Source: an uncultured delta proteobacterium (GTDB lineage: Bacteria; Desulfobacterota; RBG-13-43-22). From it: DNA of 64,000 nucleotides. Positions 41,871-47,543 of this stretch are shown here, piece by piece; position 1 is the first letter of the stretch; every line of letters starts with the position of its first letter. Made by a program: the position numbers and the translations under genes. Under the pieces are notes generated by a model that was given only the letters and a program-made list of their open reading frames with translations, searched no databases and had not been told where the DNA came from. Where the stretch lies: contig CAWBOS010000012.1 in the NCBI GenBank assembly GCA_963790475.1, positions 1,533,876 through 1,597,875 on the forward strand, in the 5' to 3' direction.

Positions 41871-42343
41871 TCAGTTTGTACCCCCGATGGTTATGGTTGC
41901 ACTGCCAAAATTTCCTTGGGAGGTGGCCGATATAGTGGCTGTCTCGGAAGAAAGAGACGGGGGAGAAAAGGTGCTGTATATTTTACCTGAACCTGGCCGT
42001 TTGAATTGGTGTCGACCGTAATAGAGTTGATGGGATTGGCTGCATCAGGGGTATCTCCCAAAAACCCTGCCCCACAAGTGATGTTGACCGGGATACCGGC
42101 AGGTACAAGATTGCCGTTATTATCTCTGACAACGACCGTAATGAAGGTGCTGCTCCAGGTGACGGGAGCGGTCTCAGAGGCTTGAGAGGCTTGTAAAGAG
42201 GATGCAGCCGGTATTACCTGGATCCTACTGATCGAACCCGATCCGCTGGAACTGCTGCCGGTCGAAGAAGTGCATCCTTGAAAAAGGATCAAGGAAATCG
42301 CCAGGCTCCCTAATACCGCTCCGAAACTTTTCACCAGGTTCAT
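41871..42343 (-). CDS. Lipoprotein with an Ig-like (Big_1-like) domain, frameshift near 41965
   Basis: Lipobox FQGC, Ser-rich linker, VVVRDNNGNLV, TNSNGQVQVKYTAP. The shifted frame continues ETATISATSQGNFGSATITIGGTN*, a typical Ig C-terminal strand pair. Confidence 0.7.
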
Positions 42344-42356
42344 CCGCTTTCCTCCA

Positions 42357-42914
42357 TTAAGATATTTGGTATTCTTTGATCCCTTCTTCGTACAGGTCAC
42401 CTCCCGTAGTATCATTGATGACTACGGCCGGGAAATTTTCGACGACCAGCCGGCGAATGGCTTCAGGCCCCAATTCCTGGTAAGCAATGACCTCCGCGGC
42501 CTTGATGGCCCGGGAAATCAAGGCCCCGGCCCCTCCCGTGGCCCCTAAATAAACGGCCTTATACTTGATCATGGCCTCTTTCACCGCTGGGGCCCGTTTA
42601 CCCTTACCGATCATTCCCTTCAAACCCAACTCCATCAAACGGGGTGCATAGGGGTCCATCCGGTAACTGGTGGTCGGTCCGGCAGCCCCGATGACCCGGC
42701 CAGGTTTAGCCGGGGATGGACCTACATAATAAATGATCTGTCCCCGAATGTCAAAGGGCAGTGGTTTGCCGGTATCTAATAGTTCGATTAGTCTTTTATG
42801 GGCTGCATCCCGGGCTGTATAGATGACGCCGCTTATTAAGACCTTGTCGCCTATTTCCAGGGTGGAAACAATTTCGTCGGTCAGGGGGGGGGTTAGGTTT
42901 ACTATCTTGGGCAT
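42357..42914 (-). CDS. Fe-S hydro-lyase (fumarate hydratase/tartrate dehydratase) beta subunit
   Basis: YTARDAAHKR, YYVGPSP, GPTTSYRMD, MIGKG, GGAGAL. Confidence 0.95.
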   Translation of the reverse strand: MPKIVNLTPPLTDEIVSTLEIGDKVLISGVIYTARDAAHKRLIELLDTGKPLPFDIRGQIIYYVGPSPAKPGRVIGAAGPTTSYRMDPYAPRLMELGLKGMIGKGKRAPAVKEAMIKYKAVYLGATGGAGALISRAIKAAEVIAYQELGPEAIRRLVVENFPAVVINDTTGGDLYEEGIKEYQIS

Positions 42915-42986
42915 GGATAGGTCCTTCTTGTTAATAAAGGGGTTCAAGGTCCAAGGTTCAAGGTTAAAGGAAACCCCTTTTACCTA

Positions 42987-43195
42987 ACCCGGACAAGCCG
43001 GAACCATATTTGAAATATTGTAACATTTGGTGGATTCGTAAAAAGTCACCGAAAGCCTATTTTCGTCATTCCCTTGAAAAAGGGAATCCAGTGTTTTTAA
43101 TAAGTTGAGAATAGCCTGGATTCCCGCCTCCGCGAGACCTTATGACGACGAAATATTCTATCCAATTTGAGTAGAATTCTATTCCTAAGTTACTA
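42987..43195. mobile_element. ~209-bp non-autonomous element (copy 2)
   Basis: Near-identical to 14428-14632; same TTACCTA left flank, ends ...CTAAGTTACTA. Confidence 0.85.
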
Positions 43196-45140
43196 CGCCT
43201 CGTCCGGGAGTTCCCCGGAAGAGGTGGCCCCTAACAGGGCAGTTGACTTAAAAGCCCGGAGTCTTTAATCTGGTCTTTCCCTTAAGGGGTAGCCCCGATA
43301 TTAGCTGTAAAAGAACCTCTAATTGAGGCGGCTGCTCCGACGAGCCGCTCAGGGGCCCATTCTCGCAGCCGCCGAGAAGGGGCCCCGGCAATGACTGGGG
43401 AGCCCTCCATATCAAAAGATCGACCAGGGAAAGACCGATGATCATGGCAGATGAATTTTGCAAGCAATATCAAGACTACCTTGACGGCATTTATGATTGT
43501 ATTGATCGTATTGTGCTCAATGCCTATTTCATTTTTGGCCAGTCCCCTGGAGGATTTAGAACCTGGTGGCGGGCCTTGAAGGGAACAGATAACGATCTGA
43601 ATGATACCAACCTGATGCGTTTTGCCGGACGACTCAGCCGACGGATTCATGCCTATGCTAAGAAAGAAGGTATTCCCTTGATCCATTGCCAGCGCGGTGA
43701 ACGAAAGCACGAGGTGGCCGAGCAATATATTCCCGGGGATCCGAACTTTCGGGGTGTATTTTGTATTCTGGCCGGGATTGCTCCGGCACCCCTTTTCCAC
43801 ATTCAGCGATCTAAAAGCGGGGGGATCAGTAACATTTCCACCAAGACCCCTTACCCCTATGTCAACCATTATTCGTTCCACATAATGGATCCGGAATGGG
43901 GACATCTGACCATCAAACTCTGTCCCCATCCTCCTTTTAATGCCCAGATCATCCTGAACGGACATGAATATCTATCCCGTCAGGCCATGAAACAAGGGCT
44001 TGTCTTTACTAAAGAAGGTAACTGCTTTACGGCAGTGACCGATAGCGCAGGTCTGGACCACATCGCGGATACCATGAGGGCCTCGTGCTCTGTAGGGCGT
44101 CTGGTTCGGACCTGCGATCAATGGATTTATTCGGCCTGTCTTTGTTTTGCCTTGGATCTTTCGGAGCAGAAAGCCAGTGGCTTCCATTACAGTTATTCTG
44201 TTTATCAGATGGAGTATAGCCGCAATCTGCTTTTTAACCGAGGCCGAACTTTGGATCAGGTGTTCCAGGGCTTGATCGATCGAACCAGAGCCCCTTTGAA
44301 TCTCAAGACGGTTCGAACTATTTTTGGCTATCGACACCGGCCATTCAGTCATCACGGCAAGAAACCGTTGCCTCGATTCGAGATCACGGTCGAGAGACCT
44401 GTCTATGATCTGACGATCTTCAAAATCCATTTTGGAAAAATGACGGTCAAGATGTATAGCAAAGGCGAAAGGGTTCTCCGAACCGAGGTTATTATTCACA
44501 ATACGAGTCAGTTGCGTTGCGGAAAACGGATCGATCGTTTCCCACAGATCTGCGAATCCCTTAAAGAAGTCCTGGAAAGATTCCTCACCGTTCTGAACGG
44601 GGTCGATGTTTCTTTTATTGATAACGGTACCTTGGAGAAGTGGCCTCTGCCCTCTAAGGTTGGAGCCACCTCCGTGGGAGGGGTCGATATCAATCGGCCT
44701 CGTATCCGGGCGGTCATGGAAGCTGTTATTGCTCTTTCTATCCATCCCCGTGGATTTACGGCTGCGAATCTGGCAGAAAAAGTCCGGGAAATTCTCAGAA
44801 TCCCGCAGAGCCGGTATCAGGCTCGGCAGGCTTCTTATGACTTGAAAAAGTTTAGAGGTAAAGATCTGGTTCAAATGATCGGCCATTCGCGCTGTTATAT
44901 GGCCACCCCGGTGGGCTTGCGTTCGATGACGGCTGTCCTTGTTCTGCGGGAAAAAATATTGATTCCTCTGCTCGCTGGCGCTGAAAAGCATCATCCCGGA
45001 CCAAAACCTGGAAACTTCTCTACTATCGATATTCATTACAAAAATATCCAACATGAGATGCAACAAATTTTTGAAATTTATAAAATGGCAGCATAATATT
45101 ATCGACAAAACTTTGTCGATGTTGATTCACTAAGCGCCTA
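43196..45140 (+). mobile_element. TIR-less putative mobile element (1945 bp), inserted with the small element between the fumarase subunit genes
   Basis: Splits an alpha/beta operon and an intergenic heptamer array (GGTTCAA..ACCTA | AACCTTAAACC). Bounded by CTA on both sides, with terminal hairpins at 43198-43224 and 45101-45120. Confidence 0.78.
43438..45096 (+). CDS. Putative transposase/replication-initiator-like protein with a C-terminal winged helix
   Basis: 552 aa, sole long sense ORF of the element. KMYSK..VLRTE (Y340,K342,R348,E350) resembles the Rep_trans catalytic motif; C-terminal GFTAANL..ASYDLKKFRGKDLV..CY wHTH; no DDE triad recognised. Confidence 0.7.
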   Translation: MIMADEFCKQYQDYLDGIYDCIDRIVLNAYFIFGQSPGGFRTWWRALKGTDNDLNDTNLMRFAGRLSRRIHAYAKKEGIPLIHCQRGERKHEVAEQYIPGDPNFRGVFCILAGIAPAPLFHIQRSKSGGISNISTKTPYPYVNHYSFHIMDPEWGHLTIKLCPHPPFNAQIILNGHEYLSRQAMKQGLVFTKEGNCFTAVTDSAGLDHIADTMRASCSVGRLVRTCDQWIYSACLCFALDLSEQKASGFHYSYSVYQMEYSRNLLFNRGRTLDQVFQGLIDRTRAPLNLKTVRTIFGYRHRPFSHHGKKPLPRFEITVERPVYDLTIFKIHFGKMTVKMYSKGERVLRTEVIIHNTSQLRCGKRIDRFPQICESLKEVLERFLTVLNGVDVSFIDNGTLEKWPLPSKVGATSVGGVDINRPRIRAVMEAVIALSIHPRGFTAANLAEKVREILRIPQSRYQARQASYDLKKFRGKDLVQMIGHSRCYMATPVGLRSMTAVLVLREKILIPLLAGAEKHHPGPKPGNFSTIDIHYKNIQHEMQQIFEIYKMAA

Positions 45141-45177
45141 AACCTTAAACCGGTTACCTTATACCTTTCACCTTCAT

Positions 45178-46021
45178 TCATAAGGTCACTTCCTTATGTC
45201 GGCTGGCATGGCACTGGACATTGACTGCCAGCGGAAGGCTGGCAATGTGGCAGGGCAACAGCCGGACATGGACTCCCAAAGAGGTTGTCCGGCCCCCCAA
45301 ACCCTGGGGACCGATCCCGAGTTTATTGATTAAATCCAGAAGCTCGATCTCCAGTTGATTCCAGTTCCGAATCGGGATTAGGGCTTCCCAGGGGACGAAG
45401 CAGGGCCTTTTTGGCTTGTAACGCGGCCTGTTCAAAGGTCCCTCCAATGCCCACGCCGATAATCGTAGGCGGGCAGGGATTAGGGCCGGCTTCTTTTACC
45501 GTTTCCACAATCTTCTCTTTGATACCGGCCAGGCCGGCTGAGGGAGGGAGCATGAATATACGGCTCATATTTTCACTCCCGCCGCCTTTGGGAACCACCC
45601 ATATTTTGAGCCGGTCTCCCGGTACCATATCGATGTAAATCACAGCCGGGGTATTATCTCCGGTATTGGCCCGGGTAAACGGATGGCAGGAGGATTTGCG
45701 AAGATATCCCTCCCCGTATCCCTGACGGACACCCGAATTGACCGCCTCTTTTAAATCCCCTCCGGTCAGATGAAGGTCCTGTCCGATTTCAAGGAAAATA
45801 ACCGCCAAGCCGGTATCCTGGCAAATCGGTATATGCTCTTCCCGGGCAATCCCGGCATTTTCGATCAGTTGTTCCAATATCTCTTTCCCGACCGGAGAGA
45901 CCTCAGTTTTAAGGGACTTTTGAAAACAGCCCAGGACATCTTCACCCAGATTCTCATTGGCCTCAATGCACAGGACCTTAACCGCGTCGGTTATTTCTTT
46001 TACGTTGAGTTCTCTGATCAT
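45178..46021 (-). CDS. Fe-S hydro-lyase (fumarate hydratase) alpha subunit, frameshift near 45360
   Basis: PICQDTG, GYLRKS, NTGDNTP, KGGGSEN, GPNPCPP; C-terminal GIGPQGLGG..CHIASLP..QCHASR in a shifted frame (extra G in CTGGAATCAA). Confidence 0.9.
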
Positions 46022-46244
46022 CCGATCTCCTGCTGTGGGGGTTTCTGAATAAGATTTTCTTTTAGTTGGAATGATACTAAATAGGGTGGAAACGAGTGTC
46101 AAGAAGAAAAGATGTGAAGAGTCCGATGAAGAGATCTTGTTTTATTGGAAAGGCCCACTTGTCATTCCTTACCGGTGATGATAAGGTTATTTTTCTTGTC
46201 CGCCGATTCAGAATTCCTATCAAAAGAGATTTTGGTCATTTAAA

Positions 46245-47543
46245 ATGCCCCTGACGACCGGATTGAAACCACAGCCCTTTCACGGATGGACCACCTTGAT
46301 CGGCCTCATGGCCGCCTATGCCGGTTTGTGCGGGGATATTACCTACGCCTATGGTTTGTTCCTGCCGGCGATGAGCCAAAATTTTCATTGGAGCCGTTCG
46401 GCTTTGTCCGGTCCTTATGTCCTCTTCTTCGTGATCGGCGGCCTTTTGGGGCCGGTGGCCGGCATGACTATCGCCAGGTTCGGTCCCAGGAAAAATATTA
46501 TCGGCTTCAATCTTATCGCGGCCTTGGGCCTGCTCGGGCTGTCTCAGACTAATGCTATCTGGCAGGTTTATCTCTTCTTCGGAGTTATGGCCGGTCTGGG
46601 AATCGCCTTCGGCGAGTTTATCCCGATAACCACCGTAATCAACCATTGGTTCATTCGGCGAAGGTCAATGGCCATGGGTCTGTTCCTGGCCTCGGGTGGG
46701 GTCGGAGGTTTTGTTTTTTCGCCGCTTATCAGTAAGCTGATTTCCGATTTAGGCTGGCGCTGGGCCTGGGGTTACCTCGCCGGCCAACATCTTTTTTTGA
46801 CCGTTATTCTGGGGGGAATCCTCATCCGAAACCGTCCCGAAGATATGGGCCAGTATCCGGATGGCATCTCTGAAACGCAAGGGCATCCTCAGTTAAATCA
46901 AACAGCCCCTCGCCATCCCGTCTACCAGACAACGGTGGACTGGACGGCCGGAGAGGCCATGCGAACCCCGGCTCTGTGGATGATCATGGCCCTATTTTCA
47001 ATCATTTTGTTCGTAACCAATATGCTGACAACCCACCAGGTCGCCTATCTCCAGGACTTGAACTTCTCCCCTCTGATGTCGGCTACGGCCCTGGGTTTGA
47101 TGCTCGGCATGAGCATTATCGGCAGACTGGCTTGCGGTTTTCTGGGTATGAGATTCGAGGGGCGGCATCTGGCGGTTTTCTTTCTGACCGGCATGGGATT
47201 GGGGATCATGGCCTTGATACTGGCCCGGGGGGTTTTATTCATTCATCTCTATTCAATACTCACGGGAATCGGTTTCGGAGGCATGATTGTGTTGATGCCC
47301 AATCTTCTGGGTGCCTACTTCGGTCGCACCCATTATTCCAGGATTGTTGGCTGGACGGCCCCTGGGGTTACCCTGATCAGCGCCGGCAGTCCGACTTTGG
47401 CCGGGTTCCTCTATGATGTCACCGGAAATTATTTTTTGCCTTTTTCCATCACCGTCGTTCTTGTTTTAGCCGGAATTGTCCTGGCTATCCGGCTCCGTCC
47501 GCCAAGCATCCTACAGACGGAAAAAAACAAAATAGATTCTTAG
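46245..47543 (+). CDS. MFS transporter (OFA/MCT-like)
   Basis: About 12 TM helices, ARFGPR motif A, WFIRRRSMAMG, AYFGRTHYSRI. Confidence 0.9.
   Translation: MPLTTGLKPQPFHGWTTLIGLMAAYAGLCGDITYAYGLFLPAMSQNFHWSRSALSGPYVLFFVIGGLLGPVAGMTIARFGPRKNIIGFNLIAALGLLGLSQTNAIWQVYLFFGVMAGLGIAFGEFIPITTVINHWFIRRRSMAMGLFLASGGVGGFVFSPLISKLISDLGWRWAWGYLAGQHLFLTVILGGILIRNRPEDMGQYPDGISETQGHPQLNQTAPRHPVYQTTVDWTAGEAMRTPALWMIMALFSIILFVTNMLTTHQVAYLQDLNFSPLMSATALGLMLGMSIIGRLACGFLGMRFEGRHLAVFFLTGMGLGIMALILARGVLFIHLYSILTGIGFGGMIVLMPNLLGAYFGRTHYSRIVGWTAPGVTLISAGSPTLAGFLYDVTGNYFLPFSITVVLVLAGIVLAIRLRPPSILQTEKNKIDS

Follow-up and report, generated by a model that had tools for sequence, protein, structure and literature searches.

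Positions 43198-43437 of the 64,000-nt stretch of uncultured delta proteobacterial DNA analysed here (the window, to whose forward-strand positions all coordinates refer) are the non-coding left end of an insertion sequence (IS)-like element of 1,945 bp (43196-45140, + strand), which carries an open reading frame (ORF) for a 552-aa protein (43438-45096, + strand). This left end is a composite of juxtaposed modules and not a single RNA domain. In the explanation that we favour, and to which we attach moderate confidence, it brings together an end signal at the DNA level, a promoter, and a leader by which the Shine-Dalgarno (SD) sequence of the ORF is masked. An earlier reading of the letters alone (the original prediction) had proposed for all 240 nt a translational repression leader, a guide or bridge-like RNA, or a single-stranded origin of the rolling-circle type. 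The lesson for annotation would be that this 240-nt 'structured RNA' is for the most part no RNA element, its conserved structures being DNA end signals.

Two hairpins, HP1 (43198-43224, + strand; arms 43198-43208 and 43214-43224, loop AGTTC) and HP2 (43227-43240, + strand), form the very end of the element. Both are conserved across phyla. In an alignment of 66 distinct left ends, 10 of the 11 base pairs of HP1 are changed on both sides and 95.6% of the cells are paired, compared to 41-57% in slid controls. Cells with a double change number 150 versus 34 expected, and none of 500 shuffles reached the observed values. A G.A mismatch recurs at one pair (22 sequences, of 1,056 cells), and the loop of HP1 is ACTGCG or ACTTCG in 43 of the 66 sequences. 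In HP2, four of five pairs are invariant; near-invariant GGCCCC/GGGGC arms enclose a variable loop (TTC in 24 sequences, TGAC in 14, TGC in 6, TAAC in 2, others in the rest). The hairpin GCCC-CTAACA-GGGC at 43227-43240, in whose loop a CTAA target motif had been seen, is indeed present in this copy, but a TAAC-type loop occurs in only those 2 of the 66 left ends. Covariation, which had been named as the check on the stems, is found in HP1, where 10 of 11 pairs show compensatory changes, but the multibranch interior that had been predicted further downstream was found in none of the examined relatives.

The relatives reveal how the left end is put together. They were taken from 35 genome contigs (many phyla) and 80 metagenome contigs, and the left end could be located by pattern in 46 of them. 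The distance from the left end to the ATG is 70-131 nt in 32 of these, and 233-365 nt in 13 that carry different, unrelated inserts; one is a mis-hit. In the window copy it is 245 nt. In a clade at ~69% protein identity (L032 and L073-L086, from metagenome contigs and contigs of metagenome-assembled genomes), HP2 and the promoter are set apart by a conserved insert of ~225 nt. Despite this insert, HP1 and HP2 stay terminal and the promoter stays beside the ORF. As hairpins and promoter are naturally separated in this clade, we argue that the former have their role at the DNA end, not in the mRNA. Yet other inserts are borne by L038, L079 and L093, and the left non-coding region of the family accepts insertions repeatedly.

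The DNA that immediately precedes the element ends in the flank or target motif TAAG-TTA-CTA (43186-43195, + strand). Among 66 distinct left flanks, position -10 is T (33) or A (29), positions -9, -8 and -7 are A (56), A (54) and G (54), three variable bases follow, and positions -3 to -1 read CTA in all 66, the search pattern having demanded the TA but not the C. The three variable bases (N3) of this WAAG-N3-CTA motif differ among copies within one genome, so the motif belongs to the target DNA and not to the element. The last bases of the element itself are TAAG-CGC-CTA (45131-45140, + strand). This terminus is fixed independently of any motif: the five copies in the genome, which are 99.7-100% identical and have different flanks, diverge right after ...GCGCCTA, and the small derivatives of the element agree. 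These derivatives resemble MITEs (transposable elements of the miniature inverted-repeat type) and retain both ends, ~60 nt on the left and ~45 nt on the right. Upstream of the right terminal motif lies a GACAA-containing box with a palindrome, ATCGACAAAACTTTGTCGAT (45101-45120, + strand). A pattern that required GACAA and [AGT]AG-N3-4-CTA, so that the presence of the motif in the set is by construction, recovered 68 distinct right ends; by eye, most have the extended ATCGACAA box, and in one clade the second half of the palindrome is non-complementary. The element has no terminal inverted repeats and its two ends are unlike each other. Judging from these junctions, the elements lie 3' of a WAAG-N3-CTA site that mimics their own right terminus. 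A circular or tandem junction was considered as the source of the right-end-like left flank and rejected, because the N3 of the flank at each locus differs from that of its own right end. The CTA together with HP1 and HP2 would form a DNA-level end signal that is read by the protein of the element.

What kind of protein this might be is suggested by its predicted structure. Searches of Pfam, NCBIfam and PDB sequences with the 552-aa protein and its profile gave no match, Pfam gave none for any of 29 relatives, and the ESM Atlas returned unnamed clusters only. AlphaFold2 (AF2) models reached a pLDDT of 87.7 over the full length and of 86.8 over residues 1-395, which were refolded alone since the full-length structural search was swamped by winged-helix matches. 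Residues 396-520 are modelled as a winged helix (Z 9-10), and residues 1-390 as a domain that resembles the TATA-binding protein (TBP) and the Rep_trans initiators. Indeed, the six best of 48,161 chains for the N-terminal domain are four TBPs (Z 7.3-8.1, with 172-178 of ~180 residues aligned) and the two solved Rep_trans initiators, 4cij_A (Z 7.2, 198 aligned residues, root-mean-square deviation 4.9) and 4cwc_A (Z 6.9, 181 aligned residues). Foldseek matched 4cij with a probability of 0.99 and E values of 4.5e-4 to 9.5e-4. According to the accessible parts of PMC5714925 and PMC13107129, four traits define Rep_trans enzymes: their fold is TBP-like, the catalytic tyrosine lies in a beta-strand as part of YxK(xxE), W/L-x-R-x-E comes after it, and there is a D-D-E metal triad. 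In the family studied here, each of K338, Y340, K342, E344, L347, R348 and E350 is either invariant or conserved to 90% or more, in and around the adjacent predicted strands 335-342 and 346-353, and D23, D151, Y340 and E350 are invariant among 29 sequences. Y340 is the candidate catalytic tyrosine, in a K-x-Y-x-K that is followed by L-R-x-E, and D23, D151 and E350 could be the metal triad. When aligned by hhalign with 23 Rep_trans sequences, K338-Y340-K342...R348-E350 fall on the invariant R-x-Y-x-K...R-x-E (Y224, K226, R238, E240), although the score is weak (E 0.016, probability 2.8%, 105 columns); with a single Rep_trans protein (E 0.25) the motif alone was aligned. Our conclusion from this motif-level match and the models is that the protein would work like a Rep_trans nuclease, whose fold it probably shares.

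Besides the weak profile score, several results speak against this assignment. The structural Z scores of 7-8 are only middling and the TM-scores are 0.27-0.38. The top Foldseek match of the N-terminal domain is an unrelated cyclase, 4xrw (E 2.2e-4, probability 0.66). The Pfam family PF02486, searched over the whole genome, gave 0 matches, and membership in Rep_trans is unsupported at the sequence level. As for other single-strand nucleases, no match to HUH or Y1/Y2 families was found in Pfam or NCBIfam, and no RRM-like or HUH structure was among the best structural matches.

The comparison with Rep_trans (PF02486)/MOBT proteins (pT181 RepC, pC221 RepD, RepDE/pSTK1 Rep 4cwc, 4cij, CTXphi RstA and Tn916 Orf20) yields both likenesses and differences. 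Shared are the two-lobed, TBP-like beta-sheet fold, which in our case is modelled, invariant acidic residues and a hairpin-bearing cis site beside the presumed nick. The differences are a protein of 552 aa that has no Pfam match, a catalytic domain of ~390 aa instead of ~200-270, a spacing of 10 instead of 23 residues between the tyrosine and the glutamate, a C-terminal winged helix, and a 1.9-kb multicopy chromosomal element with MITEs in place of a plasmid, phage or conjugative element. Moreover, the nick site of pT181 lies in the loop of a hairpin, whereas here the presumed nick is beside it. The candidate tyrosine, which lies in a predicted beta-strand as part of Y-x-K with h-R-x-E after it, agrees with what the accessible parts of PMC5714925 and PMC13107129 describe, where the Rep_trans family is presented as limited to plasmids, filamentous phages and conjugative relaxases. 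A second system of interest is Rep-Arvir (DUF7845), the initiators of archaeal pleolipoviruses and plasmids, as portrayed in the accessible part of PMC13107129 (NAR 2026). There, too, the TBP-like catalytic domain, recognisable only structurally, shares its protein with a winged helix, and a DNA hairpin that acts in cis is required beside the gene, as the left-end hairpins lie here; as far as that text goes, Rep-Arvir proteins differ in being archaeal and replicative, not transposing, and in the tyrosine context, which is KHYYM. No sequence relationship was detected: none of 29 members of our family matched DUF7845 at E up to 1.

In its behaviour the element is reminiscent of the HUH elements IS200/IS605 and IS91/ISCR/Helitron. 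They also lack inverted repeats and have unlike, hairpin-bearing ends, insert 3' of a short motif that resembles their own 3' terminus with no demonstrable duplication, and tend to land behind related ends. They differ in that the enzyme of our element is not of the HUH type, its fold being TBP-like and not RRM-like, that there is no TnpB partner, and that the motif is longer and bipartite (WAAG-N3-CTA). Taken together, we envisage the following mechanism. A tyrosine nuclease of TBP/Rep_trans-like fold with a winged helix would recognise the CTA-HP1-HP2 end (43193-43240) and nick one strand after the CTA at the left junction. A second nick would follow the identical ...WAAG-N3-CTA at the right terminus, and the element would reinsert 3' of another WAAG-N3-CTA site, in a rolling-circle or 'peel-and-paste' transposition that needs no inverted repeats. 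A single-stranded or rolling-circle origin, one of the originally predicted functions, fits the first ~50 nt (CTA, HP1 and HP2), given this protein, but not the multibranch domain.

We tentatively propose, giving it slightly less than an even chance, that this is the first IS family to be recognised in which a Rep_trans-like tyrosine nuclease of TBP fold, and not a DDE, DEDD, HUH, serine or tyrosine-recombinase enzyme, is the transposase, with the hairpins as an origin-like nick or recognition site and single-strand movement to sites that mimic the right terminus. Such targeting would explain why elements stack behind related elements and MITEs. In a search of the literature that did not extend to ISfinder, subscription journals or supplementary files, no paper was found in which the enzyme of an IS or of a transposon is of the Rep_trans kind or has the TBP fold. 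The family is large and unnamed, and no description of it was found. One library contains 5,854 scored relatives; in a second, 5,216 clusters formed at 50% identity match with E up to 1e-3, and 2,608 of them with 1e-10 or better, from many bacterial phyla. Where named, most are called 'hypothetical protein', a few bear ArsR-type or other generic regulator labels, and most are on contigs of ~2 kb, into which members of the family break metagenome assemblies. Relatives at 20-50% identity are also encoded on large plasmids, in a Mycobacterium riyadhense record and in Rhodococcus, Burkholderia and Paraburkholderia, at five places in one record; the RefSeq plasmid entries are labelled hypothetical protein or ArsR-family regulator. 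If the proposal is true, bacterial insertion sequences would have a sixth catalytic class, Rep_trans/TBP-fold nucleases would be known not only from plasmids, filamentous phages and conjugative relaxases but also from plain transposons, and thousands of 'hypothetical proteins' could be named and given a mechanism that can be tested. For tools of strand-specific DNA insertion, an insertion motif that is strict and bipartite, with small ends defined by hairpins, would be of practical interest.

A competitor of single-strand transposition by a Rep_trans-like nuclease is cut-and-paste movement, in which an unrecognised DDE-type or other double-strand transposase binds HP1 and HP2 as duplex sites through its winged helix and duplicates the 3 bp CTA. 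CTA is found on both sides of every copy, and this weighs against our interpretation, since CTA at both borders equally fits a 3-bp target duplication and the empty site is identical either way. So does the count of wobble pairs, which the original prediction had offered as a test (G-U versus A-C): HP1 shows no such asymmetry, with 6 G-T and 11 A-C among 1,056 cells, and hence no signal for either strand or for RNA. The invariant D23, D151 and E259/E350 might also be an acidic triad, and a C-terminal winged helix with a Z of 9-10 suits duplex binding sites. However, the element lacks terminal inverted repeats and has unlike ends, and the likeness between flank and right terminus reaches seven bases upstream to the WAAG, across a different N3, which a duplication cannot yield. 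Furthermore, the pairing of HP1 is kept as its sequence changes, as expected for an intrastrand hairpin and not for a duplex site that is read by its sequence, and no RNase-H-like structure was among the best structural matches. We consider cut-and-paste movement unlikely.

Between HP2 and the ORF lies the second module, a putative sigma-70 promoter, TTGACT-17-TAATCT (43243-43271, + strand), whose position is conserved: 26 of the 29 leaders examined have TTGA[CTA]-17-TAnnnT in the matching spot, either directly after HP2 or, in lineages with inserts, just before the ORF. In relatives the distance from this promoter to the ATG is typically ~40 nt. It would be the element's own promoter. The third module begins right after the -10 box. 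As had been noted, the 11 nt at 43272-43282 (GGTCTTTCCCT, + strand) are the exact reverse complement of 43426-43436 (AGGGAAAGACC, + strand), ending two bases short of the ATG at 43438. The 3' arm of this closing stem includes the SD sequence, AGGGAAAG, so that the 5' arm acts in pairing as an anti-SD sequence, and the energy of the duplex is -20.8 kcal/mol. In partition-function folding, the probability that the SD is unpaired depends on where the RNA starts: it is 0.00 for starts at 43100-43272, 0.19 at 43275 and 0.73-0.74 from 43277 onwards. A canonical start, 6-8 nt past the -10 box, would be at 43277-43279, which suggests that the SD would be freed in the element's own transcript and masked in read-through transcripts. 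Transcripts from outside would carry the whole anti-SD arm and be translationally silent; those that the element's promoter initiates would have their first base within the arm and could be translated. That the predicted start falls inside the closing stem had been raised as a difficulty; it is likely the very point of the design. All eight members of the window's subclade have the anti-SD/SD stem, at -14.6 to -20.8 kcal/mol and with one T-A to G-C exchange.

The arrangement recalls the fold-back inhibition of IS10 and IS50, by which a transposase gene is shielded from outside transcription. There, the ribosome-binding site is paired with a segment further upstream only if the transcript was begun outside the own promoter, and the folding computed for this copy would fit such a behaviour. 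Different are the position of the arm immediately after the -10 box, the 143-nt insert that the stem spans and the weakness of the effect in many relatives. This weakness counts against a general masking function: a strong cognate stem is found in only about half of the 29 leaders, where the anti-SD/SD energy averages -10.6 kcal/mol for cognate and -8.7 for non-cognate combinations, and among 18 relatives the computed start-dependent unmasking goes up in 11, goes down in 4 and stays the same in 3, being small in most. The same holds for the promoter, which is present as had been described but is not listed by a promoter consensus scan, its weak -10 box matching the consensus at 3 of 6 positions. 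Moreover, the RNA runs that could be consulted are metatranscriptome contigs (5-15% of words); the four compared gave pieces of relatives, 85-99% alike, with no usable start, end or strand. A translational repression leader is plausible for the closing stem of this copy, in which 0% versus ~74% of the SD is unpaired depending on the start, but the effect is modest and inconsistent in the 18 relatives. As a separate observation, one low-depth RNA-library contig (run X1) links 43195 with 43377, the two being on opposite strands; its probable source is a relative or a repeat.

The closing stem encloses 143 nt (43283-43425, + strand), which only the five copies of this genome match in full; no relative that was examined has them. 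In L066, the closest relative with 84% protein identity, the leader measures 38 nt and the arms GGTCTT.../...AAAGACC form a simple hairpin. Since these are the same arms, the 143 nt appear to be an insertion into the loop of a pre-existing hairpin of this kind and a recent acquisition. RNA folding of 43198-43445 gives a minimum free energy (MFE) of -106.5 kcal/mol, compared to -87.2 +/- 5.1 for 200 dinucleotide shuffles (z -3.76), none of which is as stable, and the MFE structure retains the closing stem. The three hairpins that had been predicted inside it are all present as complementarities: GGGG-TAG-CCCC at 43286-43296, TGAGGCGGCT/AGCCGCTCA at 43324-43351 and GGGGCCC..GGGCCCC from 43352. 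The MFE structure, however, keeps only one of the three, and the other two give way to alternative pairings.

Part of the insert is shared with other elements. A cassette core of 47 nt (43326-43372, + strand) is common to the leaders of other IS types and occurs at 87-98% identity, as 13 distinct variants, in 5 of 14 genomes of the genus. It is carried by ISL3-like elements, their MITEs and two other lineages of the 552-aa protein family; one carrier is the leader of a 25%-identical paralogue (E 3e-45). A different element, in a congeneric genome, has a leader that is 88% identical to positions 43298-43383, and the left end of this element is that of the 213-bp repeat described below. In ISL3-like contexts the cassette lies ~8 nt past a TACAAT box and is followed by a run of T, an arrangement that looks like a promoter-proximal terminator or a ~55-nt RNA (L026, L027 (G000:C15), L164, L171, L173, L176, L178 and L180-L184). 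Common to all variants is the pairing of a 9-bp stem (43327-43335/43365-43373), which excludes two of the hairpins of the original prediction. The cassette may act as an attenuator or a small RNA, or simply hitch-hike.

The insert, and notably this cassette, might be what matters in the leader, as a cis-acting switch, an attenuator or a small RNA gene that controls the transposase by a host signal, the closing stem being a mere platform. The conservation of the cassette in leaders of at least four otherwise unrelated IS lineages argues for this, as do its terminator-like setting in ISL3-like elements, the mutual exclusion between the 9-bp stem and the second and third of the predicted hairpins, and its occurrence alone in contigs of RNA libraries. 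Against it, the 13 variants are too alike for covariation, Rfam has no match in the window or in four other carriers, no T-run follows the cassette in this element, the elements most like this one do without it, and contigs from RNA libraries are no proof of transcription. Regulation by the insert is in our view distinctly unlikely. It is highly improbable that the left end has no function, its structure being a by-product of GC-rich, palindromic junk in an IS end. Such an origin would agree with an interior that is not shared with relatives and with IS leaders that accept different inserts, but not with the fold stability relative to shuffles, the strong covariation of HP1 across phyla, or the anti-SD/SD stem that is retained across the insert, which landed in the loop and left the arms complementary.

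A bridge or seek RNA, encoded by the left end and pairing through its loops with target and donor as in IS110/IS1111, would account for a long, structured non-coding left end before the ORF of site-selective elements that lack inverted repeats, and for the CTAA in the HP2 loop of this copy, but can be dismissed with near certainty, since the protein has no DEDD or IS110 domains and models as TBP-like (PF01548 and PF02371 match neither it nor the 29 relatives), the flank CTA is invariant and the WAAG nearly so while the HP2 loop varies freely instead of covarying with the target, typical relatives have ~40 nt from promoter to ATG, the multibranch domain is confined to the copies of this genome, HP1 and HP2 lie upstream of the promoter, and Rfam covariance models gave 0 matches at E up to 1 in window positions 42000-46500. 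To go by the accessible part of PMC11187229, IS110/IS1111 elements share with ours a long non-coding region by the transposase gene and site-selective insertion; ours differs in its enzyme, in having no conserved target-matching loop and in its conserved structures, which are upstream of the promoter.

As to its genomic setting, the 552-aa ORF sits between the genes for the two subunits of an Fe-S fumarate hydratase. The alpha-subunit gene (- strand, 45178-46102) is present as two overlapping ORFs, 45323-46102 and 45178-45447, which match positions 2-212 and 209-269 of the Pfam family Fumerase. These consecutive matches suggest a frameshift in the alpha-subunit gene adjoining the insertion, due either to a pseudogene or to an assembly error.

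On its other side the element is directly preceded by a MITE-like repeat of 213 bp (42982-43195, + strand), the last 10 nt of which provide the insertion motif. The repeat directly precedes four of the five copies of the element; the fifth (L005) has none and inserted behind an unrelated flank that ends in TAAGATTCTA. Solo repeats, with no IS behind them, are found in at least eight other places of the genome and always end in ...CCTAAGTTACTA, followed by unrelated DNA. The idea that repeat and IS move as one unit was dropped in view of these common solo repeats, the unrelated flank of L005 and two solo repeats that bear remnants of an IS; the element has instead inserted independently behind the TAAGTTACTA of the repeat. 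The two with remnants of a lost IS copy are L006 (G000:C10:519258-519472) and L013 (G000:C10:1521114-1521321). One ends in ...TTACTACGCCTA, where the first bases of the element are joined to its last, and the other is fused to the final 13 nt of the element (..ATTCACTAAGCGCCTA). Two further repeats are interrupted by other insertions of ~1.5-1.6 kb (L014/L017, G000:C12:171349-173145, and L015/L016, G000:C12:1488787-1490526), at places equivalent to window positions ~43118-43120 and 43142-43145. It seems that several mobile elements have a hotspot in this repeat.

In congeneric genomes the protein family is represented by two or more further lineages (L150, G155:C262, and L156, G157:C51 from 6414 onward). 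The ORF of one is 25% identical to the 552-aa ORF (E 3e-45). The other ORF begins MISERYPDQISGTLSCYDRMIMQG, and the left end of its element is that of the 213-bp repeat. Because this sister element (G155:C262) shares its left end with the repeat, the 213-bp repeat is probably a MITE of the sister element. Within it, at 43068-43135, lies a palindromic motif, GTCATTCCC..GGGAATCCAG / CTGGATTCCCGCC..GACGAC. Diverged copies of this motif (76-83% identity) are scattered throughout the genome, and the MITE derivatives of the element itself have it as their core.

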